Shown here one piece after another: positions 2,643 through 54,665 of a DNA stretch of 64,000 nt. This stretch comes from Candidatus Parcubacteria bacterium. GTDB taxonomy: Bacteria > Patescibacteriota > Minisyncoccia > UBA6257 > JAGOQP01. A program made the translations under genes and the position numbers. The stretch covers positions 173,638 to 237,637 of the forward strand of contig AP024682.1 of NCBI GenBank assembly GCA_025999395.1, read 5' to 3'. Every line of letters begins with the position of its first letter. The first letter of the stretch is position 1. The notes under the pieces were generated by a model that saw nothing but the letters and a program-made list of their open reading frames with translations, was not told where the DNA came from and made no database searches.

Positions 2643-4607
2643 ATGTTTTACTATTTTATTTTTACTCCTTTAGTCTTGGCCATTCTTTACGGTCTTTATC
2701 TAATTTTTTGGCTTAAGAAAAAACCAGTGGAAGATGAAAGAATGAAGGAAATTTCTAAAGCCATTCAGGAAGGAGCCAGCGCTTATTTAGCACGTCAATC
2801 AAGAACGGTGGCTGTAGTAGCAGCGGTTTTGGCGGTAATTATTTTCTTAGCTTTAGGTTGGAAAACTGCTCTAGGATTTCTTGTTGGAGGACTAACCTCC
2901 GCTTTGGTGGGTTATATTGGAATGAGGGTGGCGGTTAATTCTAACGCCAAAACCACTCAAGCGGCCAAAGAAGGAGTTAACTCGGCCCTTTCCTTAGCTT
3001 TTAAGGCGGGATCAGTCACCGGACTTTTGGTGGCAGCTTTGGGATTATTAATTGTTTCTCTTTTTTACTTTCTTTTCAAAGACTTGGCGGCGTTAGTGGG
3101 GCTTTCTTTTGGAGCTAGCTTGATTTCAGTATTTGCTCGTTTGGGAGGGGGAATTTATACCAAAGCGGCTGATGTGGGAACCGACTTGGTAGGTAAAGTG
3201 GAAGCTGGAATCCCCGAAGATGATCCGCGCAACCCCGGAGTGATTGCGGATAATGTAGGAGATAATGTCGGCGATTGCGCGGGAATGGCAGCTGATCTTT
3301 TCGAAACTTATGCTGTTACTTTAACAGCGGGAATGCTTTTGGGCTTAACGGCTATTGGAACCACTATCTCGGTTGTCTTTCCTTTGGTAATCGGAGGAGT
3401 TTCTTTGGTGGCTTCTATTTTAGGATTCTTTTTTGTTCGCTTGAAAAAGAATGATTTTAATATTATGAAGGCTCTTTATAAAGGGTTGGGAGCTTCTTTA
3501 ATTTTATCAGCGATTGGATTTTATTTAGTGAGTCGTCTTTTCTTTGGCGCGGGTTATCTAAAAATCTTTCTTTCTTCTTTAATTGGCTTGGCGGTAACCG
3601 CATTAATGGTAATGATTACTGATTATTTTACCGCCAAAAAATATCGTCCTGTTCAATCGATTGCTCAAGCTTCTTCTTCGGGGCATGGGACTAACATTAT
3701 TATGGGAATAGCGGTTGGATTTCAGTCAACAATTTTGCCGGTAATTGTAATTTGTTTGGCTATTTGGGCAGCTTATTCTCTGGAAGGTCTTTACGGAGTA
3801 GCTATTGCTTCAACAGCGATGCTTTCGGTGGCTGGAATTGTTGTTTCGATTGATTCCTTTGGTCCAATTACTGATAACGCTGGAGGAATTGCGGAAATGA
3901 CTCAGCAATCAGAGGAAATTAGAAAAGTTACCGATGCTTTGGATGCGGTAGGAAATACTACTAAAGCCGTTACTAAAGGGTATGCTATTGGTTCGGCGGG
4001 ATTGGCGGCTTTGGTTCTTTTCTCAAGCTATGTAGAAGAAATCAAGGGAATTAGTTTTGATTTGAGCAATCCTTTGGTTTTAGTCGGCTTACTTTTGGGA
4101 GCGGCAGTTCCTTATTTGTTTGGTGGAATTACTTTAAAATCAGTAGGAAGAGCAGCGGGAGCGGTAGTAGAAGAAATTCGTCGTCAGTTTAGGGAAATTC
4201 CCGGTCTTCTTGAAGGAAAAGCCAAACCTCAATATGGTCAAGCGGTAGACATTGTCACTAAAGCGGCTTTAAAGGAAATGATCCTTCCTTCTTTAATTCC
4301 GGTAATAACTACTTTGCTGGTGGGTTTTGTTTTGGGAGCAACAGCTTTGGGAGGATTTTTGATGGGAGTAATTATTTCTGGCTTGTTTATGGCATTATCA
4401 ATGACTACCGGAGGAGCAGCTTGGGATAATGCCAAGAAGTTTATTGAAGAGGGAAATTTTGGAGGAAAGGGTTCGGAAGCTCATAAAGCAGCGGTAACTG
4501 GTGATACCGTTGGCGATCCTTACAAAGACACCACTGGTCCCGCTATTAATCCTCTTATTAAGGTAATCAACATTATCGCTCTTTTGATTGTTAAGTTCTT
4601 AAGGTAA
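2643..4607 (+). CDS. hppA: membrane-bound proton/sodium-translocating pyrophosphatase (V-type H+-PPase)
   Basis: 654 aa polytopic; signature motifs [18 protein letters not shown] and [22 protein letters not shown]. Confidence 0.9.
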
Positions 4608-7272: not shown

Positions 7273-7290
7273 TCCCCCCATTTTTTTATT
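7261..7290 (+). terminator. rho-independent terminator (tggggggag-tga-tcccccca + T7)
   Basis: GC hairpin followed by TTTTTTT; overlaps stop of small ORF and 3' end of convergent nuclease gene. Confidence 0.7.
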
Positions 7291-33912: not shown

Positions 33913-36900
33913 ATGAAAAAAATATCTAATTTTAAAATAAAAATTTTTATATTTTTTATTTTTTCTCTTTTTTCTTTGCTTTTTCATTCAAAACTTGCTT
34001 TAGCTACCTGTAATCCTGTAACAGGTGAAGGGGAGGGATTAGCTTCTGCTGAAATAACAAGTCTAAATTTTAATATTAATTATCAAGATAAAATTGTATA
34101 TTTTTCAGGTTTTGCTCGTCCCGGTCTTAATTGCAGTAATGATACTTTTTATCTCGGAGTTGATTTTCAAGTTGATAATACAAACATAGGAGGGACTTTA
34201 ATAGAATATTACTCTTCTCATTCTGGAAATTTAATGCCTTTTACAGGGGATTTTTATATTAATAATCTATTTTCAGGAACATATACTTTAAGAGTTATCG
34301 CTTATGGTCCTCCTGGAGCTCCGAATGATGAAGAAACTCGTACTTTTTCTATTTCCCCTCCAACTTGTTCACCGAGTTATCAAACAGTAGAAGTTGGCCA
34401 AATGGTTAGTTTTTCTGCTTCTGATGGAATGTTAACTGGTGATTATAATTGGACTGCTTCAGGAGGAAACCCATCTTCTGGTTCGGGTACTTCTTTTTCT
34501 ACTTCTTATTCTTCTACGGGCACAAAAACAGTTACTGTTAAAAAGGGAAATGATCCTACTGCCGGCACTTGTACTGTTAATGTTATTAGTGATCAAGGAG
34601 GTGGTGGTAATACTCCCACCGCCTCTCTTACTTCCAATTATGACTCTATTCTAAAAGGAAATCCGGTAACTCTTAGCTGGACCTCTTCAAACGCTGATAG
34701 ATGTGATGCTTTGGCAGGAGCTGGTTTTTCTACTAACGGCTCAACTTCTGGATCAGATGAAGTAAATCCTTTAAGTGGAGATACGACATTTTCTATTAGA
34801 TGTTATAAAGACACTAATGGAAATAATCAATTTGATAACGGCGAACCTTCCGCTCAAGCTAATAAAACCGTTACTATTTTCTATCATACCTTAAACATAG
34901 ACGCCGCTCTTTATTCTAACTCTAATTGTACTGGGAGTACTATAGCAATGGGTCAAGATGCTAATTCGGTTACTGTAACTGTCAAAAAAAGTTCCACAGG
35001 TCAAATTTTCGATTTTGGAGTTGGTCCTCAAAATATTTGGGGTACAATGCCAGAAACTTATTCTGTTTCTAATGCTACTATTAATAATACTAGCTATAAG
35101 TATTGTGGTTCATCATCTTCAGTAACTTTTAACAGTGTTTCTCAGACTCAAACAGAAACTTTGACAGCTTTCTTTGCCCCCATCTCAGGTCAAGATAATC
35201 CTCCTTCTTCTCCTCCTTCAAATCTATCCGCTTTTGGAGAGTGTCATCAAAATTATCCTTCAGCTTCTACTCAAGTCTATCTTTCTTGGTCAGCTGTTTC
35301 AGGAGCAACTTCTTATAATGTTTATAGAAATGGATCTTATATCGGATCAACCACTAACACTGATTTTATTGATAGAAATCTATCTTTTAATCAAACCTAT
35401 TCTTATCAAGTTTCAGCTGTAAATAACAAAGGAGAAGGTCCTAAATCAAACTCTGTTTCTGCAACTACACCATCTTCTTGTAGTAATCCACCTGGCGGTG
35501 GCGGTGGTGGTGGCAACAATCCTACTTATGTTATTACTCCTTCAGAAGCTAGCATTGAAGTAGGCAATGAATATCAATTTACAGGTCTTTACGATCCAGA
35601 TGGAACAAATGATCGTTATGGAGATTTTGATGTTACTAGTTTAGCAAATTGGGGCATTAAAAGTGGCATAAATTACATCCAAAAAACAGGTCCAGGAAAA
35701 TATAAAGGTTTATCTCCAGGAAGTGATCCTCAAAACATAACTTCCTCTTATAATTCCATTTCTGCTTCTGCAACTTTAAACGTTGTTTCTAGTTCTTCTT
35801 ACTTTACCCTTTCTATTTCTCCTTCTTATCAAGAAGTTACAAAACCAGGATTAGTTACATATACTGTAACTGTTTCTTCTCAAAATGGATTTAACGGCAC
35901 TGTCTCTCTTTCTGTTTTAGGTCTTCCTTCAGGAATAACAGCTTCTTTAAATCCTTCATCAGTTACTCTTTCAAACAATTCACAAAATTCTACTCTTACT
36001 CTTAACATCTCATCAAACGCTTCTATCGGTAGATCAACTTTTTCTGTAAAAGGATCAAATCAAAATCTATCATATACTGATTCGGCTGATATAAATATCT
36101 TAGGAAACAGCACTGGACCACTTTCCTGCAGTTTAAATGCTTCTCCTAATCCAGCAAATGCAGGAAATTCTGTAACTTTATCTACAACTATTTCCGGAGG
36201 AAGTGGATCTTATAGATGTCGATTTTATTATGAACCTGGATCGGTTGATTTAGATTATTTTAATTGCTCTGACCGTACTCATACTTACTTTTCTTCAGGA
36301 ACATATACCCCTTCTGTGGATGTTATAGATCAAAACAACTCTCAACTTCAAACTTCTTGTAACACTTCTTTAATTGTTTTTCCTGGAAACGAAAATTCTT
36401 ATCATACTGAATGTATAAACAATGCTTGTGTTATAGTTGACGGACCAGGTAATAATCAATGCCTTTCAAATAACGATTGTAATCAAGGCAATAATAATCC
36501 TTTTGTTGACTTAAAGGTAAACAACAGTGATGGTCCATTAACTATTGGTTATCCTTCAGGAAGTCCTTTAGGAGGATTAATGAATATTTCTTGGAATTCA
36601 AACAATGTTAGTTTATGTCAGGCTTCAGCTCAACCAGCAGTAAATGGCTGGAGCGGCTCTCTTCCAAATTCAGGATCAACAGATGCTTTTGCTTTTGATA
36701 CTAATCCTAATTCTTCAGGCACTCAATACAGACTTTCACTTTCTTGTTCTCCTAATAAAAGTGATTTTGTTGATGTAAATATTATTGAATGTGGTTTAGA
36801 TTCATCAAATGATCCTGCTTGTCAACAATTTGATAGTTGTTATCTAAACGCCACTCCTGATACTGTCTTTTCTGGTCAGTTTTCAACTTTAACTTGGGGC

Positions 36901-37092
36901 TGTTCCTTCCCAGAAGGAAAAACCTGTTTTATCAATCAAGAAATTGGTCAAGTAAATGCTTCTGGAGGTAGTTTAAAGGTTAATCCTCGTAAAACCACTA
37001 CTTATACTCTCTCTTGCACCGGAGTTCCGGATGTTTCCACTACTGTTTCAGTTTCTTTCTTGAAAAAGTTAAAAGAAGTTATTCCTTGGTAG
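33913..37092 (+). CDS. large secreted Cys-rich surface protein with FN3 and bacterial Ig-like (Big) domains
   Basis: signal peptide; FN3 (SPPSNLSAFGECHQNYPSASTQVYLSWSAVSGATSYNVYRNGSYIGSTTNTDFIDRNLSFNQTYSYQVSAVNNKGEGP); Ig-like YVITPSEASIEVGNEYQF; Gly runs; many paired Cys. Confidence 0.6.
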   Translation: MKKISNFKIKIFIFFIFSLFSLLFHSKLALATCNPVTGEGEGLASAEITSLNFNINYQDKIVYFSGFARPGLNCSNDTFYLGVDFQVDNTNIGGTLIEYYSSHSGNLMPFTGDFYINNLFSGTYTLRVIAYGPPGAPNDEETRTFSISPPTCSPSYQTVEVGQMVSFSASDGMLTGDYNWTASGGNPSSGSGTSFSTSYSSTGTKTVTVKKGNDPTAGTCTVNVISDQGGGGNTPTASLTSNYDSILKGNPVTLSWTSSNADRCDALAGAGFSTNGSTSGSDEVNPLSGDTTFSIRCYKDTNGNNQFDNGEPSAQANKTVTIFYHTLNIDAALYSNSNCTGSTIAMGQDANSVTVTVKKSSTGQIFDFGVGPQNIWGTMPETYSVSNATINNTSYKYCGSSSSVTFNSVSQTQTETLTAFFAPISGQDNPPSSPPSNLSAFGECHQNYPSASTQVYLSWSAVSGATSYNVYRNGSYIGSTTNTDFIDRNLSFNQTYSYQVSAVNNKGEGPKSNSVSATTPSSCSNPPGGGGGGGNNPTYVITPSEASIEVGNEYQFTGLYDPDGTNDRYGDFDVTSLANWGIKSGINYIQKTGPGKYKGLSPGSDPQNITSSYNSISASATLNVVSSSSYFTLSISPSYQEVTKPGLVTYTVTVSSQNGFNGTVSLSVLGLPSGITASLNPSSVTLSNNSQNSTLTLNISSNASIGRSTFSVKGSNQNLSYTDSADINILGNSTGPLSCSLNASPNPANAGNSVTLSTTISGGSGSYRCRFYYEPGSVDLDYFNCSDRTHTYFSSGTYTPSVDVIDQNNSQLQTSCNTSLIVFPGNENSYHTECINNACVIVDGPGNNQCLSNNDCNQGNNNPFVDLKVNNSDGPLTIGYPSGSPLGGLMNISWNSNNVSLCQASAQPAVNGWSGSLPNSGSTDAFAFDTNPNSSGTQYRLSLSCSPNKSDFVDVNIIECGLDSSNDPACQQFDSCYLNATPDTVFSGQFSTLTWGCSFPEGKTCFINQEIGQVNASGGSLKVNPRKTTTYTLSCTGVPDVSTTVSVSFLKKLKEVIPW

Positions 37093-37736: not shown

Positions 37737-38243
37737 TTATTTTTTTGAGATTTGAATAACAATTCCTCTCCCTCCTTCTTTAGCTGGCATAGTGATTTTA
37801 TATTCAGTTTCGATCATTTCCAAAAATTCAGTTAATTTTTCATTAGCCCACTGACGATTGTATTTTTCTCTTCCTTTAAGCATTAAAACAATTTCTACTT
37901 TATGTCCTTGAGCCAAAAATTCTTCTATCTTTTTTACCTTTATCTTTAAGTCATTTTCTGCTGAGCGGGGGGTAATTCTTACCTGCTTTAATTCTTCTCG
38001 ACCTTGTCTAACTCTTTGTTTTTTCTCTTCTTTTTCTTGTTGATAGCGAAACTTATCAAAACTGATAATTTTGGCAACCGGTGGATTAGCGCTTGGAACA
38101 ATTTCAATCAAATCAAGCCCCTGCTCTGAAGCCAGCTTGAGAGCTTCTTCTTTGCTCATTACTCCCAAGTTTTTTCCTTCTGCATTAACTACTCTCAGCT
38201 GAGGGGCAGTTATTTGATTGTTAACTTTGAAATTCTTGATGAT
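37737..38243 (-). CDS. infC: translation initiation factor IF-3, with N-terminal extension and probable non-AUG (ATC) start
   Basis: track ORF starts at TTG 38168, but the in-frame upstream sequence encodes the conserved IF3 N-terminus ...FIIKNFKVNNQITAPQLRVVNAEGKNLGVMS...; TAA stop lies 12 nt upstream of the first ATC (38243-38241); classical infC operon infC-rpmI-rplT. Confidence 0.8.
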   Translation of the reverse strand: MIKNFKVNNQITAPQLRVVNAEGKNLGVMSKEEALKLASEQGLDLIEIVPSANPPVAKIISFDKFRYQQEKEEKKQRVRQGREELKQVRITPRSAENDLKIKVKKIEEFLAQGHKVEIVLMLKGREKYNRQWANEKLTEFLEMIETEYKITMPAKEGGRGIVIQISKK

Positions 38244-38411
38244 GAACGAATTTTTTGATTAATACTAACTTTAAAAAGCTAACATAAACTAAGCTTTTTT
38301 GCAAATTTTTTCAGGATTTTTAATTAAGGCAAAGAAAATAAAAAAGGAAGTTCTAAAAATTTCCTTCAGCAATAAAATAAAACCTTTTCTTTTATAAAAG
38401 TGGTGGAGAAG

Positions 38412-38750
38412 TGGTGGAGATGATGGGAGTTGAACCCATGTCCAAAGTAATTTTTAGTAAACCTCTACGAGCGTATCTCTCTTTAGAGAGAAAATAAAGT
38501 TGCCTCTTTTTTGTCCTTCTGTTTTTGGAGGCACAAAAACAGAAGTAAGTCTTGTTTCTTACACCGAACTTCCCTACAAGACCTCAGGAGTCGATGCCTC
38601 TCGATTTAAGCGAGAGGAAATCCCTGCTTTACGCAAAAGCGTAAGCGGGAGCCAAATTTTTGTTGGCAGTTATTTTTTTTGATAGCTTAACGGGCTATCA
38701 GGCGGCTCGCAGTTTACTAAAAATTTACTTTGTCGAATCCCGGCATCCCC
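38412..38750 (-). ncRNA. ssrA: tmRNA (ssrA), tag peptide ANKNLAPAYAFA
   Basis: 5' GGGGATGCCGGGATTCGACAAAG... (conserved GGAUUCGAC), 3' tRNA-like end ATGGG-TTCAACT-CCCAT-CATCTCC-A-CCA with G3:U70; internal ORF GCC AAC AAA AAT TTG GCT CCC GCT TAC GCT TTT GCG TAA; begins 11 nt after the smpB stop. Confidence 0.85.
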
Positions 38751-38760
38751 ATTTTTATTT

Positions 38761-39216
38761 TTAAAGTGCTTTAGAAATTGTTTTTAGCTTTCTTTGAATC
38801 TCTCTTTCGGTTTCCCTTTTTTTAATTATTTCTCTTTTGTCGAATTGTTTTTTACTTTTAGCTACTCCAATCTCTATTTTTAAAAGGTTGCCTTTATTAT
38901 ACAACTTTAATGGCACTATTGTCAATCCTTTCTCCTGCGATTTTCCTAAAAGATAATTTATCTCTTTCTTTTTTAAAAGAAGTCGTCGGGGGCGCTCTTT
39001 ATCGTAGCCAGGGGGAGTATTTTTTTCTTGAAAAGGGGAAATGGAAGCTCCCACCAGCCAAGCTTCATTATTGTAGATTTTTACATAAGCACCAGTTAAG
39101 GATCCTTTTTGAGCGCGTAAGGCTTTTACTTCGAATCCTTCTAATTCAATTCCAGCTTCGAATTTTTCTAAGATTTGATAATCAAAGAAAGCTTTTTTGT
39201 TTTCAAGAAGAATCAT
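38761..39216 (-). CDS. smpB: SsrA-binding protein SmpB
   Basis: KKAFFDYQILEKFEAGIELEGFEVKALRAQKGSLTGAYVKI...; immediately upstream of ssrA. Confidence 0.9.
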   Translation of the reverse strand: MILLENKKAFFDYQILEKFEAGIELEGFEVKALRAQKGSLTGAYVKIYNNEAWLVGASISPFQEKNTPPGYDKERPRRLLLKKKEINYLLGKSQEKGLTIVPLKLYNKGNLLKIEIGVAKSKKQFDKREIIKKRETEREIQRKLKTISKAL

Positions 39217-39414: not shown

Positions 39415-42400
39415 ATGTTTAAAATGGTTTTTATGCTAATCAACTTAAAATCTTTTAACCCTTCGGAGGTTGAAGAAAAAGTTCTTCAATTCTGGAAGGA
39501 AAAAAATATCTTTCAAAAAACTTTAAATCCCAAGGGGAAAAAGAAAAAATTCTTTCATTTTTGGGAGGGCCCTCCTTACGCTAATGGACGGCCGGGAATT
39601 CATCATGTTTTGGCTAGAGTGTTTAAAGATGTTTTTTTGCGTTACAAAACGATGCAGGGGTTTATAGTTCCCAGAAAAGCTGGTTGGGATACTCACGGTC
39701 TTCCTATTGAAATTGAAGCAGAAAAAGATTTTGGAGTTAGCTCTAAAGTGGAGATAGAAAAAATAGGAATTGATCGTTTTAATCAAAAAGCCAAAGAAAT
39801 TGTTTTCCGGTGTAAGGATGAGTTTGAAAAAATGACTGAACGAATTGGTTACTGGTTGGATTTAAAAAATGCCTATGTAACTTACTCTCCGGATTTTATT
39901 GAAAGTTTGTGGTGGGTGTTTAAAAGAATTTATGAGAGAGGTTATTTGAAAGAGCTTTACCGAGTAGTTCCTTATTGTCCGCGATGTCAAACTCCTTTAT
40001 CTAATCACGAACTGGGTCAGCCGGGAGTTTATAAAAGCGTTCCCGATCCTTCTTTGTTTGTAAAATTTCCTTTGGCAGGAAAAGAAAACGAATTTCTTTT
40101 GGTTTGGACCACTACTCCCTGGACTTTGCCGGCGAATGTTGCAGTGGCAGTGTTACCGGAAGGAGATTATGTAAAGTACAAAGTTGGCCAAGACTATCTC
40201 TGGATGCTTGAAGGGGCACCTTTTTTGAGAGAGAAATTTGAATTAGAGGAAGTGGAAAGAAAAAAAGGAAAAGAAATGGCTGGCTGGAAATATCAACCGC
40301 TTTATCCTTTAAAACAAAAAATTAATTTACCAATTGAGCCTTACAGCGTCCTTTTAGCAGATTTTGTTTCAATGGAAGAAGGGACAGGATTGGTTCATAT
40401 TGCTCCCACTTTCGGGGAAGATGACTTTAATTTAGTTTTTGCTCAGGGAATTAAAGAAAATCATCATCTGCCCCACACCGTTGAGGATGATGGAACGATG
40501 GCTAAAGAAGTAATTGGAGAAGGGCTGCCGATAAAAGAAGCTGATAAAGTAATTCTTCAGGATTTAGAAAAAAGGGGATTAGTTTTATTGGTGGATAAGA
40601 TAGAGCACGAATATCCTCACTGTTGGCGTTGTTCTTCTCCCTTGATTTATTTTGCTAAAAAGTCTTGGTTTTTTGAGGTTTCTCGCTTAAGAAAAGAATT
40701 AGTAGAAGCTAATCAAAAAATAAACTGGTACCCTGAATATCTAAAAGAAGGAAGATTTGGAAATTGGATCGCCGAAGCCAAAGATTGGTCTATTTCTCGC
40801 GATCGCTTTTGGGGGACGCCTCTCCCAATTTGGCGTTGTCAGAAATGCCAAAAGTTAACAGTAGTAGGAAGTTTTCAGGAATTATTTTCCTTACAACCCC
40901 ACGAAGAACCAAATAAATATTTTCTTCTTCGTCACGGAGAGGCGGAAAGTAATATTAAACAAATTGTTGATGCTGATCCTAAAAACAAAGACAGGGTTGG
41001 TTTAACTTCAAAAGGGAAAAAACAAGCTCAGCAGGTAGCCAAAAAGTTAAAAAAGGAAGGAGTTGATTTAATTTTTTCCTCTGATTTTCGAAGAACTCGA
41101 GAAACAGCTGAAATTATTGCCAAGGAATTAGGCATCAAAAAGGTTATTTTTGATGAGCGCTTAAGAGAAATTAATGTGGGAATCTTTCACGGGCATAATG
41201 TCCAAGATTATCACACTTACTTTCCTTCTTATCAGGATAAGTTTCAAAAACAGCCGGAGAAGGGAGAAAGTCTAAAAGATGTTTCTAAAAGAGTTTGGGA
41301 TTTTGTTAAAGAGGTGGAAAAGAAATATCACGGCAAAAAAATTTTGATAGTTAGTCACGAGTATCCTTTGTGGATGCTTTATTCGGTGATTAAGGGTTTG
41401 TGGCAGGAGCGCTCGATTCGGGAAAAAGAAGAAAGGGGTAATGATTTCTTAAAGCCAGCCCAATTTGAAGTAGTTGATTTTGCTTTAGTGCCGCGAGATG
41501 AGTGGGGAATGGCTGACTATCATCGCCCTTATGTAGATAAGATTTCGCTTAAGTGTCAGCATTGCGGATCTTTAGCTAATAGGATTTCTGATGTAGCGGA
41601 TGTTTGGTTTGATTCAGGAGCAATGCCTTATGCTCAAGAACATTGGCCTTTTTCTAAGATAAAAGAAGGATCATCGATTTCTGATTTTGATAAAAAATCT
41701 CTTAAAAAACCGGATCGTTTTCCAGCCGATTTTATTTGTGAAGGAATTGATCAAACAAGAGGCTGGTTTTACACTCTTTTAGCAACCGCGGTGCTTTTGG
41801 GAATGGGTACTCCTTACAAAAATGTGGTTTCTTTGGGATTGGTTTTAGATAAATATGGTCAAAAAATGTCAAAATCTCGCGGTAATGTAGTCGATCCTTG
41901 GTCGGTTATCAATAAGTTTGGAATCGATGCGGTGCGCTGGTATTTTTATTCAATTAATTCTCCAGCTGAGCCTAAAAACTTTGATGAAGAAGAAATAAAA
42001 AATTCCTTAAGAAGGTTACTGATGCTGGTTTACAATTCCTTTGCTTTTCTTCAGCTTTATGGGCAAAGGCGCCTACCTTTAGAAAAAACTCCTTCTTTAA
42101 AAAATCCCTTAGATCAATGGATTCTTTTGCGTCTTAGCCAAACCGCTTTAGCGGTTGAAGAAAGAATGGATAATTATGATGTTTTAAAATCAACTCAGTT
42201 AATTGAAGAGTTGGTGGATGATTTGTCTCGTTGGTATATTCGCCGCTCGCGAAGAAGATTTCAAAAACCAGATTTAGATTCTTTACAAGGAAAGAAGGAT
42301 TATCAAAATGCTTCTTGGGTGTTGGCTTTCGTTCTTTTAAATCTTTCTAAGTTGTTGGCTCCGTTTATTCCTTTCTTTGCCGAAGCTCTTTATCAATCTC

Positions 42401-42990
42401 TAAAGAAGCTTTATCGATTTAAGAGTCAGGATTCAGTTCATTTGGAAGAGTGGCCTTCTTTTTCCCGCCCCTCTCGTAAAGAAGCAAAGCTTTTAGAAGA
42501 AATGTCCAAGATAAGAAATTTGGCATCATTAGTTTTGGCTAAAAGAATAGAGGTAAAAATTAAAGTTAAACAACCCTTATCGGTTTTGAGAATAAAGAAT
42601 CCAGATTTATGGGTAGACAATCCCGGACTTTTGAAAATTTTAGCTGAAGAAGTAAATGTTAAAGAAGTAGTGTTTGATAAAGAAATTAATCAGGATTTTG
42701 AATTGGACACCACCATCACTCCCGAATTAAAAACCGAAGGAATTCTAAGAGAATTATCAAGAAATATTCAAGACTTAAGACAAGAAGCTGGCTGTCTTCC
42801 TAAGGATAAAATTAATCTCTGGTTTGAAGGTGATAAAAATCTTTTAAGTTTGGTAGAAAATAATCTTTCTTGGATAAAAGAAGAAGTGAGCGCTAAAAAT
42901 ATAAGATTTGAGCGCTCAGCAAAGGTAACTGCTCAAATGGAAACCAAGATTGATAATCAAAGAATTTGGATTGGCCTTGAGGTAGTTTAG
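39415..42990 (+). CDS. ileS: isoleucyl-tRNA synthetase with an inserted histidine-phosphatase (phosphoglycerate-mutase-like) domain
   Basis: HIGH region PPYANGRPGIHHVLARV, CP1 editing domain (TTPWTLPAN), Zn knuckles YCPRCQ / HCWRC, KMSKS (GQKMSKSRGN); about 190-aa insert (nt 40915-41490) with RHG (LLRHGEAESN), RRTRETAE, REINVGIFHG, IVSHEYP motifs between CQKCQK and CQHCGS. Confidence 0.85.
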   Translation: MFKMVFMLINLKSFNPSEVEEKVLQFWKEKNIFQKTLNPKGKKKKFFHFWEGPPYANGRPGIHHVLARVFKDVFLRYKTMQGFIVPRKAGWDTHGLPIEIEAEKDFGVSSKVEIEKIGIDRFNQKAKEIVFRCKDEFEKMTERIGYWLDLKNAYVTYSPDFIESLWWVFKRIYERGYLKELYRVVPYCPRCQTPLSNHELGQPGVYKSVPDPSLFVKFPLAGKENEFLLVWTTTPWTLPANVAVAVLPEGDYVKYKVGQDYLWMLEGAPFLREKFELEEVERKKGKEMAGWKYQPLYPLKQKINLPIEPYSVLLADFVSMEEGTGLVHIAPTFGEDDFNLVFAQGIKENHHLPHTVEDDGTMAKEVIGEGLPIKEADKVILQDLEKRGLVLLVDKIEHEYPHCWRCSSPLIYFAKKSWFFEVSRLRKELVEANQKINWYPEYLKEGRFGNWIAEAKDWSISRDRFWGTPLPIWRCQKCQKLTVVGSFQELFSLQPHEEPNKYFLLRHGEAESNIKQIVDADPKNKDRVGLTSKGKKQAQQVAKKLKKEGVDLIFSSDFRRTRETAEIIAKELGIKKVIFDERLREINVGIFHGHNVQDYHTYFPSYQDKFQKQPEKGESLKDVSKRVWDFVKEVEKKYHGKKILIVSHEYPLWMLYSVIKGLWQERSIREKEERGNDFLKPAQFEVVDFALVPRDEWGMADYHRPYVDKISLKCQHCGSLANRISDVADVWFDSGAMPYAQEHWPFSKIKEGSSISDFDKKSLKKPDRFPADFICEGIDQTRGWFYTLLATAVLLGMGTPYKNVVSLGLVLDKYGQKMSKSRGNVVDPWSVINKFGIDAVRWYFYSINSPAEPKNFDEEEIKNSLRRLLMLVYNSFAFLQLYGQRRLPLEKTPSLKNPLDQWILLRLSQTALAVEERMDNYDVLKSTQLIEELVDDLSRWYIRRSRRRFQKPDLDSLQGKKDYQNASWVLAFVLLNLSKLLAPFIPFFAEALYQSLKKLYRFKSQDSVHLEEWPSFSRPSRKEAKLLEEMSKIRNLASLVLAKRIEVKIKVKQPLSVLRIKNPDLWVDNPGLLKILAEEVNVKEVVFDKEINQDFELDTTITPELKTEGILRELSRNIQDLRQEAGCLPKDKINLWFEGDKNLLSLVENNLSWIKEEVSAKNIRFERSAKVTAQMETKIDNQRIWIGLEVV

Positions 42991-43011: not shown

Positions 43012-44361
43012 ATGAAGATGATTAAAAACTTTTCTTCTCTAGCTTCCTCTCCTCTTCGCAAGCAGGCTCTTTCTTTAATTGAAGCTGCCTTTCAAGCGCT
43101 TGAGGTAGAAAAAGTAATTAAAGAAAGGGTTTTTCTTAATCGGGAAAGGCAGGCTCTTGCCTTTAGTAGCGTCTCAGGAAAAGAAGTTGAATTGGATTTA
43201 ACTAAGATAGGAAAAATTTATTTAATAGGCTTTGGCAAAGGTTCTTTGTTGGCGATCGCTTCTTTAAAAAAGACTCTTTCTTCTTTAGGAGAAAAAATTG
43301 CTCAGGCTATTGCTTTAGATAAAGAAAGAACTCTTCCCTTATCTCAAATTAGAAAACTAAAAATTAAATTTTTCCAAGGTAGTCATCCTCATCCTTCTTT
43401 GAAAAACATTCGAGCTGCTGGTTTTATTTTAAAGACTCTTAATCAACTCAAAAAAGATGATTTGGTAATTTATTTTATCGGGGGAGGCGGTTCGGCGCTA
43501 CTTTGCGCTTCTCAAGAAGAACTTAGATTTAGTCGATTAGTTTTTGAGCGGCTAACAAAAAAAGGGGCTTCAATTAAAGAGATTAACACCGCTCGAAAGC
43601 ATCTTTCTTTGGTAAAGGGAGGTTTTTTGGCTCGTTATACTTATCCGGCTACTTCTGTTTCTTTAATTGTTTCTGATGTTTGCGGAAATGATTTTTCAAT
43701 TATTGCTTCAGGGCCAACGGTTTTGGACAAAACAACCAAGAAAGATGCTTTAAGAATTTTAAAAAAATATTTTTCTTCTGAGGAAATTAAAAAATTTTCT
43801 TTAGCTTCTGCTTTGAAAGAAACCCCTAAAAATAAAAAGTATTTTTCAAAGGTTAAAAATCTTCTTTTAGCCTGTAATCAGGATGGAATATTGGCTATGA
43901 AAGAAAAAGCTCAGTCTTTAGGATTAAAGGCAAAAATCATTTCCTTAACCTATCAAAATGAAGCTCGAAAAACTTTTCTATCTTTTTTAAAAAAAATTAA
44001 AAAGGGCGAAGTTTTTCTTTTAGCGGGAGAAACAACGGTTAAAATTGAAGGCAAAGGTAAGGGAGGAAGAAATCAAGAAGCGGTTTTGGGAGCAATTGCC
44101 TGGGCTTATCAGAAAAAATTTGATTTTCATAATCTTTTAGTAGCAAGTTTTTCTTCTGATGGCTGGGATAATACACCTGTAGCTGGGGCGTTAGCAGATG
44201 AAAAAACTCTTCAATTAGTTTTTCAACGAAAAATTAACCCCTTTCTTTTTCTAAAAAACAATGACTCTTTTCATTTTTTTAAAAAAGTGGGTGGCCATCT
44301 TAAAGTTCGAAGACAATCTTTTAATGTAGCGGATCTGATGATGATAATTAAAGGCAAATAA
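43012..44361 (+). CDS. glycerate 2-kinase (MOFRL family)
   Basis: IYLIGFGKGS, FIGGGGSALLC, LLAGETTVKIEGKGKGGRNQE motifs typical of GckA/TtuD glycerate kinases. Confidence 0.75.
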   Translation: MKMIKNFSSLASSPLRKQALSLIEAAFQALEVEKVIKERVFLNRERQALAFSSVSGKEVELDLTKIGKIYLIGFGKGSLLAIASLKKTLSSLGEKIAQAIALDKERTLPLSQIRKLKIKFFQGSHPHPSLKNIRAAGFILKTLNQLKKDDLVIYFIGGGGSALLCASQEELRFSRLVFERLTKKGASIKEINTARKHLSLVKGGFLARYTYPATSVSLIVSDVCGNDFSIIASGPTVLDKTTKKDALRILKKYFSSEEIKKFSLASALKETPKNKKYFSKVKNLLLACNQDGILAMKEKAQSLGLKAKIISLTYQNEARKTFLSFLKKIKKGEVFLLAGETTVKIEGKGKGGRNQEAVLGAIAWAYQKKFDFHNLLVASFSSDGWDNTPVAGALADEKTLQLVFQRKINPFLFLKNNDSFHFFKKVGGHLKVRRQSFNVADLMMIIKGK

Positions 44362-44438: not shown

Positions 44439-46928
44439 ATGTCTCAATACATAAAAGCTTTTTCTTCTCTGACTATTAAAGATGTTCCTCAGGTAGGAGG
44501 GAAGAATGCTTCTTTGGGAGAAATGATTAGAACTTTAACTTCTCGAGGAATAAATGTTCCCGACGGCTTTGCAATCACCGCTCAAGCTTATCGTTTCTTT
44601 TTAAAAAAAGCTCAAGTAAAGGTTGAAAACGGTCAGTGGCTAAGCTTGGAAAATTTTCTCAAGAAAAGTTTAGCAAGTTTAAATATCAAGAATTTAAAAA
44701 GCCTCCAACAAACAGGGAAAAAGATAAGAGAAGCTATTAAAAATGCTTCGTTACCGCAGGATTTGGAAAAAGAGATTAGAAAAGAATATCAGCGGATGGA
44801 AAAAAAATATGGTCCCAAAGTGGATGTAGCGGTTCGTTCCTCGGCTACTGCAGAAGATTTGCCTTCTGCTTCTTTTGCTGGTCAGCAAGAAACTTATCTT
44901 AATATTCGAGGAGAGGAAAAACTAATAGAGGCAGTAAAGAAATGTTTCGCCTCTCTTTTTACTGACAGAGCCATTTCTTATCGTCAAGACAAAAAATTTG
45001 ATCATCTAAAAGTAGCACTTTCAGTGGGAGTTCAAAAAATGGTTCGCTCCGATAAAGCTTGTTCAGGAGTAATGTTTACTTTGGATACTGAATCTGGATT
45101 TAAGGATGTGGTCCTCATTAATGGGTCTTGGGGTTTAGGAGAAATGATTGTTCAGGGAGAGGTTATTCCGGATGAATTTTTGGTTTTTAAGCCCTTTTTG
45201 AAAAAAAATTTTAGTCAACTTCTTCCAATTATAGGGAAAAAATTAGGGCAGAAGGATAGAAAAATGATCTATTCTTCTCAAGAGACAAAGCCTACCAAGA
45301 TTGTAGAAACCTCACCAAAAGAACGCCAAACTTTTACTTTAAATGATCAGGAAATTTTAACCTTGGCTAAATGGGGAATTTTGATTGAGGAGCACTATTC
45401 TAAGAAAAATGGTCGTTGGACGCCAATGGATATTGAGTGGGCTAAAGATGGATTAACTGGACAGTTGTTTATTGTTCAAGCTCGACCAGAAACGGTTCAA
45501 TCCCAGAAAGATTTTTCTATTATTCGAGAATATCGGCTAAAAGAAACACCCTCAAAAAACAAAATTTTGGTAAGCGGAGCTTCGGTGGGGAACAAAATTG
45601 CTTCTGGTAAAGCGAGAGTTATTTTAGATGTTAAGGGGATTAATTCCTTTAAAGCAGGAGAGATTTTAGTAACAGATATGACCGATCCTGATTGGGAGCC
45701 GATAATGAAAATTGCCTCCGCGATTGTTACCGATAAAGGAGGGCGCACTTCTCATGCGGCTATTGTTTCTCGAGAACTGGGTATTCCCTGTATTGTGGGA
45801 ACCGTTAACGCCACTAAAAGGATAAAAACCGGGCAATCGATAACAGTAGATGCGACAGGCAGTGAGGGTTATGTTTATGATGGTTTAATCAAGTTTGAGA
45901 TTAAGGAGCAAAATATTAGAAATCTTCCTTCGGTAAAAACCAAAATAATGGTTAATGTTGGTACCCCCGAAATTGCTTTTAAGAGCTCATTTTTACCGGT
46001 TCAAGGAGTGGGGTTGGCGCGAGAAGAGTTTATTTTGGCTTCTGGGATTGGTATTCATCCAATGGCTTTAATTGATTATCCAAAACTTAAAAACCAACTT
46101 CGGCTTCTGGAAAAACAAAAAAAGCTAAAGCAAGCTTCTTTCTTAAGAAGAGTTCTAAATCTAATAGACAAAAAAACTGCTGCCTATCAAGACAAGAAAG
46201 ATTTTTACATAGATCAGCTAGCTTATGGAATTGCCAAAATTGCGGCTGCTTTTTGGCCGCGTGAAGTTATTGTCCGCTTTTCAGATTTTAAAACCAATGA
46301 GTATCGGCAATTAATAGGCGGAGAGATTTATGAACCAAATGAGGAAAATCCAATGATTGGTTGGCGAGGAGCAGCGCGGTATTATCATCCTTCTTTCGAA
46401 AAGGCTTTTGCGCTGGAAGTAGTGGCCATTAAAAAAGTTCGTCAAGAGATAGGATTAAACAATGTAAATGTAATGATCCCTGTTTGTCGCACTCCGGAAG
46501 AAGGGGAAAAGGTTTTATCTCTTATGGGAAAATATGGTCTAAAGCGTGGTCAGCAAGGGTTAAGGGTATATGTAATGTGTGAGGTACCGGCCAATGTTAT
46601 TTTAGCGGATAAATTTTTAGATATTTTTGATGGAATGAGCATTGGCTCTAATGACTTAACTCAAATGACTTTGGCTTTAGATAGGGATGGAAATGAAAGA
46701 ATTAGAAATATTGCTAATGAGAATAATGAAGCGGTAAAAACTCTGATTTCTTGGGTGATTAAAAAATGTCGGGCTCGCAAAAAATATATTGGCATCTGTG
46801 GAGACGCTCCTTCTACTTTTCCTGAATTTGCTAAGTTTCTCGCTCGAGAAGGAATAGAAAGTATCTCTTTAAGTCCAGATGCGGTAATAAGAACCATTCT
46901 TGAAATTGCCAAGTCGGAAAGAAAATAG
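44439..46928 (+). CDS. ppsA: phosphoenolpyruvate synthase (pyruvate, water dikinase)
   Basis: N-terminal VPQVGGKNASLGEM, phosphohistidine domain GGRTSHAAIVSRELGIPCIVG, C-terminal PEP-utilising TIM-barrel; 829 aa. Confidence 0.85.
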   Translation: MSQYIKAFSSLTIKDVPQVGGKNASLGEMIRTLTSRGINVPDGFAITAQAYRFFLKKAQVKVENGQWLSLENFLKKSLASLNIKNLKSLQQTGKKIREAIKNASLPQDLEKEIRKEYQRMEKKYGPKVDVAVRSSATAEDLPSASFAGQQETYLNIRGEEKLIEAVKKCFASLFTDRAISYRQDKKFDHLKVALSVGVQKMVRSDKACSGVMFTLDTESGFKDVVLINGSWGLGEMIVQGEVIPDEFLVFKPFLKKNFSQLLPIIGKKLGQKDRKMIYSSQETKPTKIVETSPKERQTFTLNDQEILTLAKWGILIEEHYSKKNGRWTPMDIEWAKDGLTGQLFIVQARPETVQSQKDFSIIREYRLKETPSKNKILVSGASVGNKIASGKARVILDVKGINSFKAGEILVTDMTDPDWEPIMKIASAIVTDKGGRTSHAAIVSRELGIPCIVGTVNATKRIKTGQSITVDATGSEGYVYDGLIKFEIKEQNIRNLPSVKTKIMVNVGTPEIAFKSSFLPVQGVGLAREEFILASGIGIHPMALIDYPKLKNQLRLLEKQKKLKQASFLRRVLNLIDKKTAAYQDKKDFYIDQLAYGIAKIAAAFWPREVIVRFSDFKTNEYRQLIGGEIYEPNEENPMIGWRGAARYYHPSFEKAFALEVVAIKKVRQEIGLNNVNVMIPVCRTPEEGEKVLSLMGKYGLKRGQQGLRVYVMCEVPANVILADKFLDIFDGMSIGSNDLTQMTLALDRDGNERIRNIANENNEAVKTLISWVIKKCRARKKYIGICGDAPSTFPEFAKFLAREGIESISLSPDAVIRTILEIAKSERK

Positions 46929-47036: not shown

Positions 47037-49724
47037 ATGAAAAAGTTTGGTCTCTTGTTTTTTTCCTTTATTCTTTTAACTTTCTCTTCCTCAAGTTTTG
47101 CTTTTTCGACAAATCAATCCTCTCAAATTAATTACTTAGGGAAATTTCTTGCTGATGTCTATAGTGCCCTTTTTGGCACTTCTCAGACTTCTCTTTTAAC
47201 AAAAGCAGAAGCTACAGGTAGTGTTACAATTCATGCTCTCATTGGAAAAAGAGAGACGACTGGAGGTGCTATTACTAATACTCGTCCAGCGACAGCAAGT
47301 GAATTAGCCGGCTTTTCTTATAAAATTGAAAGAATCGAAGGACGAGGAACAAATACTAAAATTACAACAGTCATTGATAATGCCAGGGCTGAACAAACTT
47401 ACTCCTTAGCAGCCAATGATCCGTCAACGAGAGATGAGTATTTTCTTATTGTTAAAGACACTCCCGAAAACATTACTTATGATCCCGGTATTTTTGGAGG
47501 TATTTATTTTAAAGTGGCAGCTGGTCAAAATACTGATGTTACAGTTACTTATTATGTTGCTCTTAGCACTGCTAAACCTGGTGCGGCTGGGGAACCAATT
47601 GAGGTAACAATTGATGCTGATGTGGTAGATTACAAAGGAAATTTTGTGAGAAATTTGACTGCTGAAGAAAAAAATCGAATTAAATTTGAAGTTAAGCAAT
47701 TTGATAGCTCTAGTAATTATGGAGGAGAAGTGGGAACCTTTGAAAATGCTGGTAAAGCGACCTCAGCCTTTCCTTCGCCGGCAGGATTGGGAACTTTTAA
47801 AAATGTTCCAGTTAGAAGAGCGGCTCAGGTGAATAACTTTTGGGGATATCGTTTATTAGATATTGAATTGCCTAGCGGTTATTCTTTAAGATCAATCACT
47901 TCAGAAATTATTGGTGATGAAAATGTTCGACACAACGGTTATAATCAGGGAACTCTTTTTGTACCACCCTTAGTTGTTCCTCGTAGTTTTTGGGAACAAT
48001 ATCAAGACATTCTTGGACCTTACGGTTCAGTACCTAAATTTACCCTTAAGCTTCATTTAGCAGAAGTTGAAGATTCAAGAGTTCAGAAGAAAGATAAGCT
48101 CTTATTCGTTGGGGAAAATAATTCAGGTTTAGATTTTGTTAAAAGAATTGTTCAAACCTATACCGACAATGAAGGTTTATATTTAGAAAGGCATAGCAAT
48201 GATAGAGTTCCTCACAACGCTCAAGGAAAGCGCCCCTTTCCTTCTTCTTTTCAAGTTGTTTCCAATAACGGTAAAAATTATTTAGTTTTGAATGCTCGTT
48301 CTCAGATTCATATTTATGATGTTACCAATCCTACCAATCCTAATTTAGTTGAGAAGTTTAATGTAGCTGAAAACCTTTCTTCTTTTCAGTTTTTAGCTCA
48401 TGGGGCGGGAGTTGGGACAGCTTCCGGTTGGCCTCAGGTGGGAGATGTATTTTTTGTTGATGGTTCTCCTTATGTTCTTGCAAACTACGGTTACGGAGGG
48501 GGAAATGGAATGAGTGGAATAGTAATTTTGCGTCTTGATAAGGATTCAATGAAACTTTCTTTTGATGAGAAGTTAGCTTGGATTAATTACAGAGGAGGCA
48601 ATAGAGCTTATGGCCAATATAAGGGTAGTGACGGGAAGATTTATTTTGTAGCAAGTATGTCACAAGAAGATGAAGGAACCAAAGGGATTAAACTACCCTC
48701 TAAATCATCCTCAAATGTTTTTGGAATTTTTACTCTTGATTCTAGCGGCCAACTAAAACTGGAAAAAACACTGCAAGAAAAATCTGGTTTTAATTATCGA
48801 TTTAATTCGCAAGACATTAGCTCTTCGAGCGTCGTTAAAGATTTTCCTTTAGATAATGCTAAATTGGAAAATGTTGGCGACAAAACTCTTCTTCTTGTAT
48901 CAGTTTCAAAATATATAACTACTACCGAAAGTCCCTCCTTAAAGATAATAGATATTACCGATCCCCAAAATGCTTCGGTGGTTGCTTCTTTAAAAATAAC
49001 AGATGGAGTAGCAAGAATGGCGGTTGATAGATATCAAAAGAGATTGATTATAGTTGAAGGATCAGGAAAGGTGGATGTTTTTGATATTGCCAATCCTTCT
49101 TCTCCTCAAAAATTAGCTGATTATTCCAATCTTTTTGAATTGTTGGGAATAAACGAGCAAAGTGGCGCAGTGTTAGAATTAAAGAAGAGACTGAAAATTC
49201 CTTCAAGCGAAAACATTTTACCAGCTTTATCTAATTATTTTAATACTTCTCCTTCTTTTAGTTCGCTAGCGGTTGCTAACGGAAAAATTTTCTTATCGGT
49301 TCCGACGGGGAGTAACTTTTTGAGAGGCGAGACTGAATATTCTGATTATAATGCTTGGTATTTCCAGTTTTTTGCTGATATCAAAGATCTAAGCAATCGC
49401 AAGGTTTTAGGGATGATTTTACCACGTCAGATTTTTTACGCAGCCACTGGCAGCAGCCCTCAACCTCTCGAATATTGCTATGCTGGGCAAAATGTTCTTT
49501 TCTACCGAGATCGCTATATTTATCGAGCCAATTGTCATTTAGCTGATGTTTGGGAGTTTAAAAACATAACTGCCTCCAGTGCCCCCCCAACTCCCGAAGC
49601 TCCGGGTGCTGGCGGGACAACTCTTACTCCTCAACCCTCTTCTCAACCTCAGGTTCCATCTCAGGGGAGTATCTTTTCTATTCGCTCTATTTATAACTGG
49701 GTAAAGAGGGTTATCAAGCTGTAG
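47037..49724 (+). CDS. secreted beta-propeller-like protein with LVIVD-type repeats (IYDVTNPTNPNLVEKF / IIDITDPQNASVVASL / VDVFDIANPSSPQKLADY)
   Basis: signal peptide, repeated [IV]xD[IV][ST][DN]P..P..[LV] units, Pro-rich C-terminal tail. Confidence 0.45.
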   Translation: MKKFGLLFFSFILLTFSSSSFAFSTNQSSQINYLGKFLADVYSALFGTSQTSLLTKAEATGSVTIHALIGKRETTGGAITNTRPATASELAGFSYKIERIEGRGTNTKITTVIDNARAEQTYSLAANDPSTRDEYFLIVKDTPENITYDPGIFGGIYFKVAAGQNTDVTVTYYVALSTAKPGAAGEPIEVTIDADVVDYKGNFVRNLTAEEKNRIKFEVKQFDSSSNYGGEVGTFENAGKATSAFPSPAGLGTFKNVPVRRAAQVNNFWGYRLLDIELPSGYSLRSITSEIIGDENVRHNGYNQGTLFVPPLVVPRSFWEQYQDILGPYGSVPKFTLKLHLAEVEDSRVQKKDKLLFVGENNSGLDFVKRIVQTYTDNEGLYLERHSNDRVPHNAQGKRPFPSSFQVVSNNGKNYLVLNARSQIHIYDVTNPTNPNLVEKFNVAENLSSFQFLAHGAGVGTASGWPQVGDVFFVDGSPYVLANYGYGGGNGMSGIVILRLDKDSMKLSFDEKLAWINYRGGNRAYGQYKGSDGKIYFVASMSQEDEGTKGIKLPSKSSSNVFGIFTLDSSGQLKLEKTLQEKSGFNYRFNSQDISSSSVVKDFPLDNAKLENVGDKTLLLVSVSKYITTTESPSLKIIDITDPQNASVVASLKITDGVARMAVDRYQKRLIIVEGSGKVDVFDIANPSSPQKLADYSNLFELLGINEQSGAVLELKKRLKIPSSENILPALSNYFNTSPSFSSLAVANGKIFLSVPTGSNFLRGETEYSDYNAWYFQFFADIKDLSNRKVLGMILPRQIFYAATGSSPQPLEYCYAGQNVLFYRDRYIYRANCHLADVWEFKNITASSAPPTPEAPGAGGTTLTPQPSSQPQVPSQGSIFSIRSIYNWVKRVIKL

Positions 49725-52944: not shown

Positions 52945-52952
52945 TTATTTTG

Positions 52953-53026
52953 CGCGGCCGACCGGACTTGAACCGGCAACCCCCGCCGTGACAGGGCGGT
53001 GCTCTGACCAATTGAGCTACGACCGC
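52953..53026 (-). tRNA. tRNA-Asp (GTC)
   Basis: GCGGTCG-TA-GCTC-AATTGGTCA-GAGC-A-CCGCC-CTGTCAC-GGCGG-GGGTT-GCCGG-TTCAAGT-CCGGT-CGGCCGC-G; 74 nt, no encoded CCA. Confidence 0.85.
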
Positions 53027-53248
53027 TTAGAACCTCCACTGAAAATGTGAAGTGTGAAAATGGAGGTGTGTTGCGTGCTGTATGTGCTGTAGTGTGTGCT
53101 GTAGTTAAGTAAGGATGTTTTTTGACGACCCGGCGGGGTTGGACCGCTTCCTCTTTTTAGTTTTTTATGAGGTTTTTCGGGTCGCTTTTGTATTCTATTA
53201 AAAGAGAATTAAAAGTCAAGAAAAATTTTGGAGAAAAGATTGATTTTG

Positions 53249-53320
53249 TTGCGGGGGAGGGATTTGCACCCTCGATCTCCTGGTTATGAGCCAGGCGAGA
53301 TACTACTTCTCCACCCCGCT
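53249..53320 (-). tRNA. tRNA-Met (CAT), initiator-like (unpaired A1:A72, A11)
   Basis: AGCGGGG-TG-GAGA-AGTAGTA-TCTC-G-CCTGG-CTCATAA-CCAGG-AGATC-GAGGG-TGCAAAT-CCCTC-CCCCGCA-A; aligns closely to bacterial tRNA-fMet. Confidence 0.8.
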
Positions 53321-54492: not shown

Positions 54493-54566
54493 GGCAGGGT
54501 AGCTCAGTTGGTTAGAGCGGGCGTTTCATAAGCGTCAGGTCGTGGGTTCGAATCCCACCCCTGCTA
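54493..54566 (+). tRNA. tRNA with CAT anticodon (elongator Met or Ile2-lysidine; not distinguishable by eye)
   Basis: GGCAGGG-TA-GCTC-AGTTGGTTA-GAGC-G-GGCGT-TTCATAA-GCGTC-AGGTC-GTGGG-TTCGAAT-CCCAC-CCCTGCT-A. Confidence 0.75.
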
Positions 54567-54665
54567 CTCTTCTCTATCTATCGAAGGCAAGTTCTTGGTA
54601 AGCTAGATTCTTTTACCAAAGGAAGATAATTAAAAAGCTTAAAAAAAGTAAAAATGTTATCAAGT

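Follow-up and report, generated by a model that had tools for sequence, protein, structure and literature searches.

Why would a bacterium carry a phosphatase inside its isoleucyl-tRNA synthetase (IleRS)? The question is raised by a 64,000-nucleotide (nt) stretch of contig AP024682.1 (positions 173,638 to 237,637, forward strand; assembly GCA_025999395.1) from a "Candidatus Parcubacteria" bacterium, an uncultured, Paceibacteria-type member of the candidate phyla radiation (CPR). Within this stretch, hereafter the window, the ileS gene at 39415 to 42990 (plus strand) is an uninterrupted 1191-aa open reading frame (ORF) that encodes a type 2 IleRS with an embedded histidine phosphatase domain. 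Few enzymes are as conserved or as thoroughly studied as the aminoacyl-tRNA synthetases, and domains added to them usually reveal editing, tRNA binding, or signaling. We find that the IleRS-phosphatase architecture is real, conserved, and, as far as we could find, undescribed. We propose that the insert is an active phosphomonoesterase and that, in CPR bacteria, it is dedicated to partnering class Ia synthetases, a reading to which we give about an even chance.

The inserted domain and its host enzyme

The domain covers amino acids 494 to 700 (207 aa; 40894 to 41514, plus strand), as delimited by alignment with the Thermus thermophilus IleRS structure 1ILE and by a subfamily hidden Markov model (HMM). 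The HMM envelope runs from amino acid 497 to 686 and the Pfam core from 503 to 663; the core matches PF00300 (His_Phos_1) at an E value of 2.5e-39 (135.4 bits against a gathering threshold of 21.7; profile positions 2 to 162 of 194). The segment from 40915 to 41490, where the original prediction had placed the domain by reading the DNA, matches the same family at 6.8e-41 when translated alone. In the 1ILE alignment, query residues 17 to 493 pair with T. thermophilus residues 11 to 479 and query residues 701 to 1044 with 489 to 816, so that amino acids 494 to 700 replace about nine residues of the T. thermophilus loop. This alignment bears out the predicted in-frame insertion between CQKC and CQHC. 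By its position in the sequence, the insertion site is CP3, the last connective-peptide (CP) module, leading into the second Rossmann half (CP core/CP1/CP2/CP3 nomenclature from PMC11685878). The further claim that this is an insertion and not a fusion artifact holds as well: the frame is intact, and a 98%-identical database protein (P0268) from an independent assembly has the same architecture.

All of the branch 1 catalytic residues foreseen for the insert are present on proper alignment. They comprise R506-H507-G508 (40930 to 40938), with the phosphate-binding Arg and the nucleophilic His each found in 277 of 280 inserts; R560, the second phosphate-pocket Arg (the latter Arg of SSDFRRT; 41092 to 41094), in 279 of 280; E585, the general acid (the Glu of LREIN; 41167 to 41169), which is E or D in 280 of 280; and H648, the second pocket His (the His of IVSHE; 41356 to 41358), in 280 of 280, all on the plus strand. 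Retention in 277 to 280 of the 280 inserted copies includes the tandem copies discussed below. Across 103 full-length homologs, whose mean column identity is 49%, R506, H507, R560, E585, and H648 are invariant. Free-standing relatives likewise retain R, H, R, H, and the acid (E or D) in 106 of 106 cases. In a comparison of loci L001 and L019 (88% amino acid identity), the insert has a ratio of nonsynonymous to synonymous substitution rates (dN/dS) of 0.054 and the synthetase body one of 0.065.

Structure prediction with AlphaFold2 gave a mean predicted local distance difference test score (pLDDT) of 93.7 and a predicted template modeling score (pTM) of 0.90 for the insert alone. For the whole protein, these values were 92.0 and 0.86, with junction blocks at a pLDDT of 86 to 97; because of the junction values, the insert is predicted to dock rigidly on the synthetase with no floppy tether. 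The modeled domain has the dPGM/PhoE-type alpha/beta fold (Foldseek probability of 1.00). No other His_Phos gene and no second ileS were found in the window.

The surrounding enzyme appears to be a complete synthetase. It scores 828.5 bits against the ileS model TIGR00392 (cutoff, 621.4), in a match split into two stretches, and also matches PF00133, PF08264, and PF19302, the last of these (DUF5915) at amino acids 1076 to 1190, as in the C-terminal organization of type 2 enzymes, which lack a zinc-binding domain at that end. The best solved relative is T. thermophilus 1ILE (E = 3.7e-221). The type 2 structures 1ILE and 8C8W are the top PDB matches, and type 1 structures (8C9F and 1FFY) score far lower; we assign the window IleRS to type 2 because its best solved relatives are 1ILE and the Priestia megaterium IleRS2. 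Translation probably begins at M7 (39433), to judge from the homologs, which start at the equivalent of M7 ("MLINLKSF…"; consensus "MLxxLKxF"); the annotation of P0268 is 12 residues shorter than the 1191-aa ORF.

The core IleRS motifs are intact, as originally reported, with the "HIGH-like" motif being GIHH. This class I signature has the swapped form G61-I-H-H64, GXHH and not HXGH (39595 to 39606, plus strand); H64 is invariant, H63 is at least 90% conserved, and GIHH is the consensus of the window's clade ("GRPGIHHV"). The GXHH swap in IleRS2 has been experimentally linked to mupirocin hyper-resistance (PMC10485003). Also on the plus strand are the CP1 editing motif TTTPWT (amino acids 232 to 237; 40108 to 40125), invariant in 103 insert-bearing homologs, and the KMSKS loop (amino acids 817 to 821; 41863 to 41877), in which K817, M818, S819, and K820 are invariant. 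The CP3 zinc knuckle has its first half at C475-Q-K-C478 (40837 to 40848), aligned to the T. thermophilus CxxC just before residue 479, and its second half at C714-Q-H-C717 (41554 to 41565); C475, C714, and C717 are each at least 90% conserved. Four insert-bearing proteins (P0007, P0012, P0014, and P0021) have lost all four zinc-knuckle Cys, with the position of the phosphatase unchanged. Two other identities for the enzyme were rejected, namely, the acquired mupirocin-resistance forms MupA/MupB (714.5 and 656.4 bits against a cutoff of 1900) and the GNAT-containing IleRS of NF040702 (255.2 bits against 1999).

Distribution, free-standing relatives, and recurrent insertion

Rarity, which the original prediction had implied, is contradicted by the homologs. 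PF00300 is present in all 120 of the best full-length homologs (48 to 98% identity, 1119 to 1219 aa), whose source names include Paceibacterota, Colwellbacteria, Harrisonbacteria, Liptonbacteria, Minisyncoccota, and Parcubacteria GW2011_GWA1_60_11. Searching a 295-aa junction segment against 1.84 billion cluster representatives (50% identity) returned 244 matches at E≤1e-30; nearly all of the best 150 of these span flank, insert, and flank contiguously, and more than 140 clusters share the insert. A genome scan extended the range to Jorgensenbacteria, Sungbacteria, Azambacteria, and Nealsonbacteria, and the frame through the insert is unbroken in 21 species-representative genomes. Across much of Paceibacteria/Parcubacteria, IleRS normally carries the insert.

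Proteins with this architecture have been public since the 2015 GW2011 genomes, complete with precomputed PF00300 matches, under the names "isoleucine--tRNA ligase" or "class I tRNA ligase family protein." The original prediction held the architecture to be undescribed and allowed that it might prove to be common and already annotated. Common it is; annotation extends solely to raw Pfam matches, because the sources name the proteins only as tRNA ligases. A literature search found no paper describing a phosphatase within IleRS, so that novelty stands for the description and not for the sequences. The main text of a 2026 preprint on 96,219 IleRS architectures names the INS subdomain as the sole optional insertion and mentions neither a phosphatase nor CPR.

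The closest relatives of the insert outside IleRS are free-standing proteins of 183 to 221 aa (mostly ∼190 aa) with 45 to 53% identity to it. Their gene lies immediately upstream of an insert-less ileS (929 to 975 aa) in eight of eight loci, overlapping it by 4 to 19 nt in four and leaving a gap of 2 to 265 nt in the other four. Gene order at these loci is L20-L35-IF3-SmpB, then ArgRS-[phosphatase]-IleRS-RecO. Relatives with either architecture have L20-L35-IF3-SmpB ahead of ileS, as does the window, where ArgRS is missing from that place. At locus L032, a different gene is found further upstream and the phosphatase-ileS pair is retained.

Among 21 insert-bearing loci, 20 have no free-standing copy. 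The remaining one, L013, has an intact, divergent 144-aa His_Phos_1 ORF (3903 to 4337, plus strand; 30.5 bits) between ArgRS and the insert-bearing ileS, and this may be a relic of the donor gene; no other relic was found in the ArgRS-ileS gaps of the 21 loci. At L028 (2784 to 8466 on a 214-kb contig), argS and ileS are in many short ORFs and the phosphatase gene between them is intact; assembly frameshifts are a more likely cause of the broken ORFs than pseudogenes.

The strongest evidence lay beyond the reach of a prediction from one gene and consists of the existence of an operon form, the use of several insertion sites, the presence of more than one copy in some proteins, and a counterpart in valyl-tRNA synthetase (ValRS). 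The architecture is more general than the single-gene oddity first noticed. In window numbering, the insertion falls in the CP3 loop in 261 of 262 single-copy proteins. Overall, IleRS has at least five insertion points (window-equivalent residues ∼413, 494/700, 715 to 722, 747 to 753, and 887 to 893) and up to three or four copies of the domain, with some proteins carrying it at two points at once. The site at ∼715 to 722, just after the second Cys pair, is used in P0244, P0263, P0248, and P0264, and the site at ∼747 to 753, after "MPYAQ.HYPF," is used in P0198, P0210, and P0259. The loop before the first anticodon-binding helix (∼887 to 893) holds the sole copy in P0266 and a second copy in P0200, P0256, P0210, and P0259. 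The CP3 loop is normal in P0266, P0210, and P0259.

One protein with four phosphatase copies, P0214, proved to be a ValRS (381 to 411 bits with valS models versus 199 with ileS). ValRS of Gracilibacteria/Peregrinibacteria account for 71 of 120 best matches and have one to four copies each (P0388-P0505 set). At least 70 of 87 domain instances in ValRS lie between WWGHRIP and DTWFSS, in a loop homologous to the CP3 site of IleRS, and 9 further instances lie between QWF and WWGHRIP. Neither of two insert-less valS loci (L035 and L036) has a phosphatase neighbor, and an insert-bearing valS (L037, 4001 to 7270) has an unrelated gene context. Capture of a neighboring gene cannot explain the ValRS case, because the insert-less valS loci have no adjacent phosphatase.

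In a neighbor-joining tree of 386 phosphatase moieties, one split parts free-standing from inserted copies at 99.2%, the free-standing sample being biased in that it was chosen by similarity to the window insert. Two inserts (P0135 and P0165) are nested among the free-standing copies. Insert-less IleRS bodies occupy at least two positions among insert-bearing ones, which implies either more than one transition or replacement of ileS.

What the phosphatase may do

The nearest solved proteins by sequence are iPSP1 (4IJ5; E = 2.7e-17), PhoE (1EBB and 1H2E), the Schizosaccharomyces pombe phosphoglycerate mutase (PGM), and CobC. The best Foldseek matches (4IJ6/4IJ5, 6S2Q, 1H2E, 4QIH [GpgP], 6E4B [CobC], and 9MMH; TM scores of 0.73 to 0.78, E values of about 1e-14) are all histidine phosphatases. 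None of the models for characterized subfamilies reaches its cutoff: dPGM_arch scores 100.1 bits against 225, GpmB 93.5 against 261, pgm_1 40.4 against 81.7, PRK14115 35 against 305, PspA 94.3 against 350, and CobC (TIGR03162) 95.6 against 162.9, and SixA matches the N-terminal part weakly (43.7 against 74.5). The label "PGM-like" in the original prediction was therefore an overstatement. After the catalytic Glu, the insert reads E-I-N-V-G, resembling the E-I-H-L-G of PhoE; the mutase counterpart is E-R-H-Y-G, whose Arg and Tyr are absent from this segment. Because every equivalog cutoff is missed and E-I-N-V-G is not mutase-like, we file the insert as a PF00300 member of no characterized subfamily.

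The insert is very probably an active phosphomonoesterase. By homology, H507 would attack a phosphomonoester to give a phospho-histidine, with R506, R560, and H648 holding the phosphate; E585 would protonate the leaving group, and water would then free the phosphate. The protein as a whole would thus be a functional IleRS2 carrying a complete, minimal branch 1 phosphatase (PhoE/iPSP/CobC-like) at the tip of the CP3 zinc-knuckle hairpin. The phosphatase comes in two forms, a separate protein whose gene abuts or overlaps the start of ileS and a version with one to four domains built into the synthetase. If the enzyme is active, its functional coupling to the synthetase seems to us somewhat favored, as gene neighborhood and recurrent fusion are together strong comparative evidence for a functional link. 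The phosphomonoester acted on would then be carried by a ligand shared with the synthetase. We tentatively suggest that the phosphate sits on a nucleotide or on the ribose at the tRNA terminus; for the two taken together, our confidence is rather less than even.

One specific version of this proposal makes the phosphatase a third catalytic site, removing a 3′-phosphate or 3′-pyrophosphate from A76 of tRNA. Such groups might be installed by toxSAS-type toxins or left by nucleases, and the synthetase would repair and recharge its own tRNA. The result would be a built-in counter-defense comparable to CP1, arrived at convergently in the IleRS of Paceibacteria and the ValRS of Gracilibacteria/Peregrinibacteria. 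The idea is attractive because CP1 is itself an inserted hydrolase acting on the CCA end and because tRNA-specific 3′-pyrophosphorylation by toxSAS toxins is documented (PMC11559606). We give it a small chance.

Several points weigh against a partnership with the synthetase. The nearest characterized relatives (iPSP1, PhoE, GpgP, CobC, and riboflavin HFP) are small-molecule enzymes without ties to translation, and this small-molecule nature, shared by every characterized relative, speaks most strongly against a translation-linked substrate. The histidine phosphatase superfamily is not known to include an RNA-end phosphatase. Because synteny extends over the entire L20-IF3-SmpB-ArgRS-ileS-RecO block, adjacency by itself speaks only weakly for coupling. 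Finally, the use of several peripheral loops and multiple copies argues against a precise active-site-to-active-site geometry and suggests tethering or colocalization rather than a precise channel between active sites.

In another reading, the phosphatase is a hitchhiker, that is, an unrelated small-molecule phosphatase ancestrally encoded beside ileS and copied by local rearrangement into permissive surface loops, with the tether having no functional meaning and persisting because both activities are needed and re-separation is hard. The free-standing gene is the immediate neighbor of ileS within a block that is syntenic throughout, the 144-aa ORF of L013 resembles a decaying donor copy at the ancestral position, the nearest characterized relatives are metabolic phosphatases, and every insertion point is a loop. 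We nevertheless consider this explanation rather unlikely. The main argument against pure neighbor capture is the ValRS case, in which the same domain occupies the homologous loop in another lineage whose valS has no phosphatase neighbor. In addition, the domain has entered at five or more independent points and has been amplified with retention of its catalytic residues, which points to repeated selection for tethering, and the phosphatase-ileS pair survives a change of upstream gene at L032.

A protein phosphatase acting on the synthetase or a translation partner, for example, by reversing a HipA-like kinase toxin and so conferring built-in immunity, is a further candidate. SixA, PGAM5, and Sts-1 are protein phosphatases of this superfamily, and kinase toxins target aminoacyl-tRNA synthetases. 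The domain is small (about 190 aa) with a minimal cap, and its N-terminal part has the weak SixA match mentioned above. That match falls below its cutoff, however, the best structural matches are small-molecule enzymes, and no kinase was seen in the conserved neighborhoods examined, all of which make this role improbable.

The genes downstream of ileS bear on a metabolic alternative. A DUF4147+MOFRL gene of the glycerate-kinase family (43012 to 44361, plus strand) directly follows ileS and is itself followed by a phosphoenolpyruvate (PEP) synthase/PPDK-type gene (44439 to 46928, plus strand). Phosphoglycerate-related neighbors beside a PGM-superfamily domain would fit a glycolytic PGM, or a phosphoglycerate-directed phosphatase, moonlighting inside IleRS, as would the domain's weak resemblance to the dPGM_arch and GpmB models and to S. 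pombe PGM and the several top structural matches that bind phosphoglycerate-like ligands. This juxtaposition may be a coincidence. L001 and L019 also have a glycerate-kinase-family gene and a PEP synthase/PPDK-type gene after ileS, but the arrangement is limited to the window's sub-clade, and most relatives have RecO there. With all mutase equivalog models far below cutoff and with E-I-N-V-G lacking the Arg and Tyr of the mutase motif, we regard a PGM as quite improbable.

A noncatalytic role, either as a CP3 stabilizer replacing zinc or as a dimerizer, is prompted by the loss of zinc-knuckle Cys from some insert-bearing IleRS and by the fact that histidine phosphatases often dimerize, in which case tandem copies could pair together. 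We rate this very low, as a scaffold does not need R, H, R, E, and H, which are invariant or nearly so in 280 copies, and dN/dS in the insert is 0.054. An assembly chimera, a frameshift artifact, or an intein-like mobile element can be dismissed, given a frame unbroken in the window and in 21 independent genomes, agreement among hundreds of independent assemblies, and the absence of inteins by the criterion used (a Hint domain; Cys/Ser/Thr at both junctions and His-Asn at the C-terminal end), as Pfam finds no Hint or intein domain and the junctions (…QPHEEPNK/YFLL… and …EWGMA/DYHRPY…) have no splice residues. Recent horizontal acquisition was rejected too, as GC content shows no compositional anomaly (0.375 in the insert versus 0.365 in the gene body).

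Context, significance, and comparison with known systems

Upstream of ileS, the window has the conserved block on the minus strand (37737 to 39216), including IF3 (37737 to 38168), tmRNA (38412 to 38750), and SmpB (38761 to 39216). The tmRNA (149 bits; tag ANKNLAPAYAFA) adjoins smpB just upstream of ileS, on the strand opposite to it. Rfam matches in the window are tmRNA and tRNAs only, and no riboswitch, T-box, or other RNA leader was found upstream of ileS. The tRNA genes at 53248 to 53320 (minus), 54493 to 54567 (plus), and 52952 to 53026 (minus) include two with a CAT anticodon and one tRNA-Asp. Read with their flanks, both CAT tRNA genes lack an encoded 3′-CCA; the one at 54493, whose D-arm is Ile/Val-like, may be a lysidine-type tRNA-Ile2. 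Elsewhere, two plus-strand ORFs at 33913 to 37092 (1059 aa) and 47037 to 49724 (895 aa) lack Pfam matches at E≤1e-5, an ORF at 7289 to 12349 (minus strand) encodes 1686 aa, and an ORF at 14704 to 18837 matches a peptidoglycan-binding domain only.

An entire bacterial class retains an apparently active phosphatase, either within IleRS or in translational coupling with it, and a second CPR lineage has the domain in the homologous loop of ValRS. If our proposal of a dedicated partner phosphatase is right, the two activities are functionally linked in a way not foreseen by any known chemistry of aminoacylation. Identifying the substrate would reveal either a new step in how CPR bacteria handle tRNA or nucleotides or a striking example of an essential enzyme that captured a domain neutrally. 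Two consequences are practical, in that automatic annotation calls such proteins "class I tRNA ligase family protein" and metabolic reconstructions could miscount the insert as a phosphoglycerate mutase.

The architecture is a variant on a known theme, a synthetase with an accessory catalytic domain. Outside the insert, the window protein is homologous over its whole length to type 2 IleRS (1ILE; P. megaterium 8C8U-8C9D; GXHH variants, PMC10485003), to which it adds ∼207 residues that constitute a second enzyme in the CP3 loop. With minimal branch 1 phosphatases, namely, the metal-independent phosphoserine phosphatase iPSP1/PspA (4IJ5/4IJ6), PhoE/YhfR (1H2E and 1EBB), the alpha-ribazole phosphatase CobC (6E4B and 6NRU), and GpgP Rv2419c (4QIH), the insert shares the fold, the R-H…R…E…H set, a length of ∼190 to 210 aa, and 23 to 31% identity. 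Those enzymes are free-standing and metabolic, whereas the phosphatase described here either lies within a class Ia synthetase or is coupled to one through an operon. The RNase H/acid phosphatase (PRK07238, Rv2228c type), whose phosphatase half is matched by the insert at 96 bits (cutoff, 326), also joins a branch 1 phosphatase to a nucleic acid enzyme; there, however, the fusion is end to end, unlike the loop insertion seen here, and the partner is a different enzyme. A curated precedent for IleRS with an extra catalytic domain is NF040702 (ileS_w_GNAT), in which the added domain is a different one, the N-acetyltransferase GNAT. A parallel in placement is the CP1 editing domain, likewise a hydrolytic domain inserted in the connective-polypeptide region of the Rossmann fold, so that a single chain holds several active sites. 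All Ile/Val/LeuRS have CP1, which has an unrelated fold and hydrolyzes aminoacyl esters, whereas the insert is lineage specific and a predicted phosphomonoesterase.

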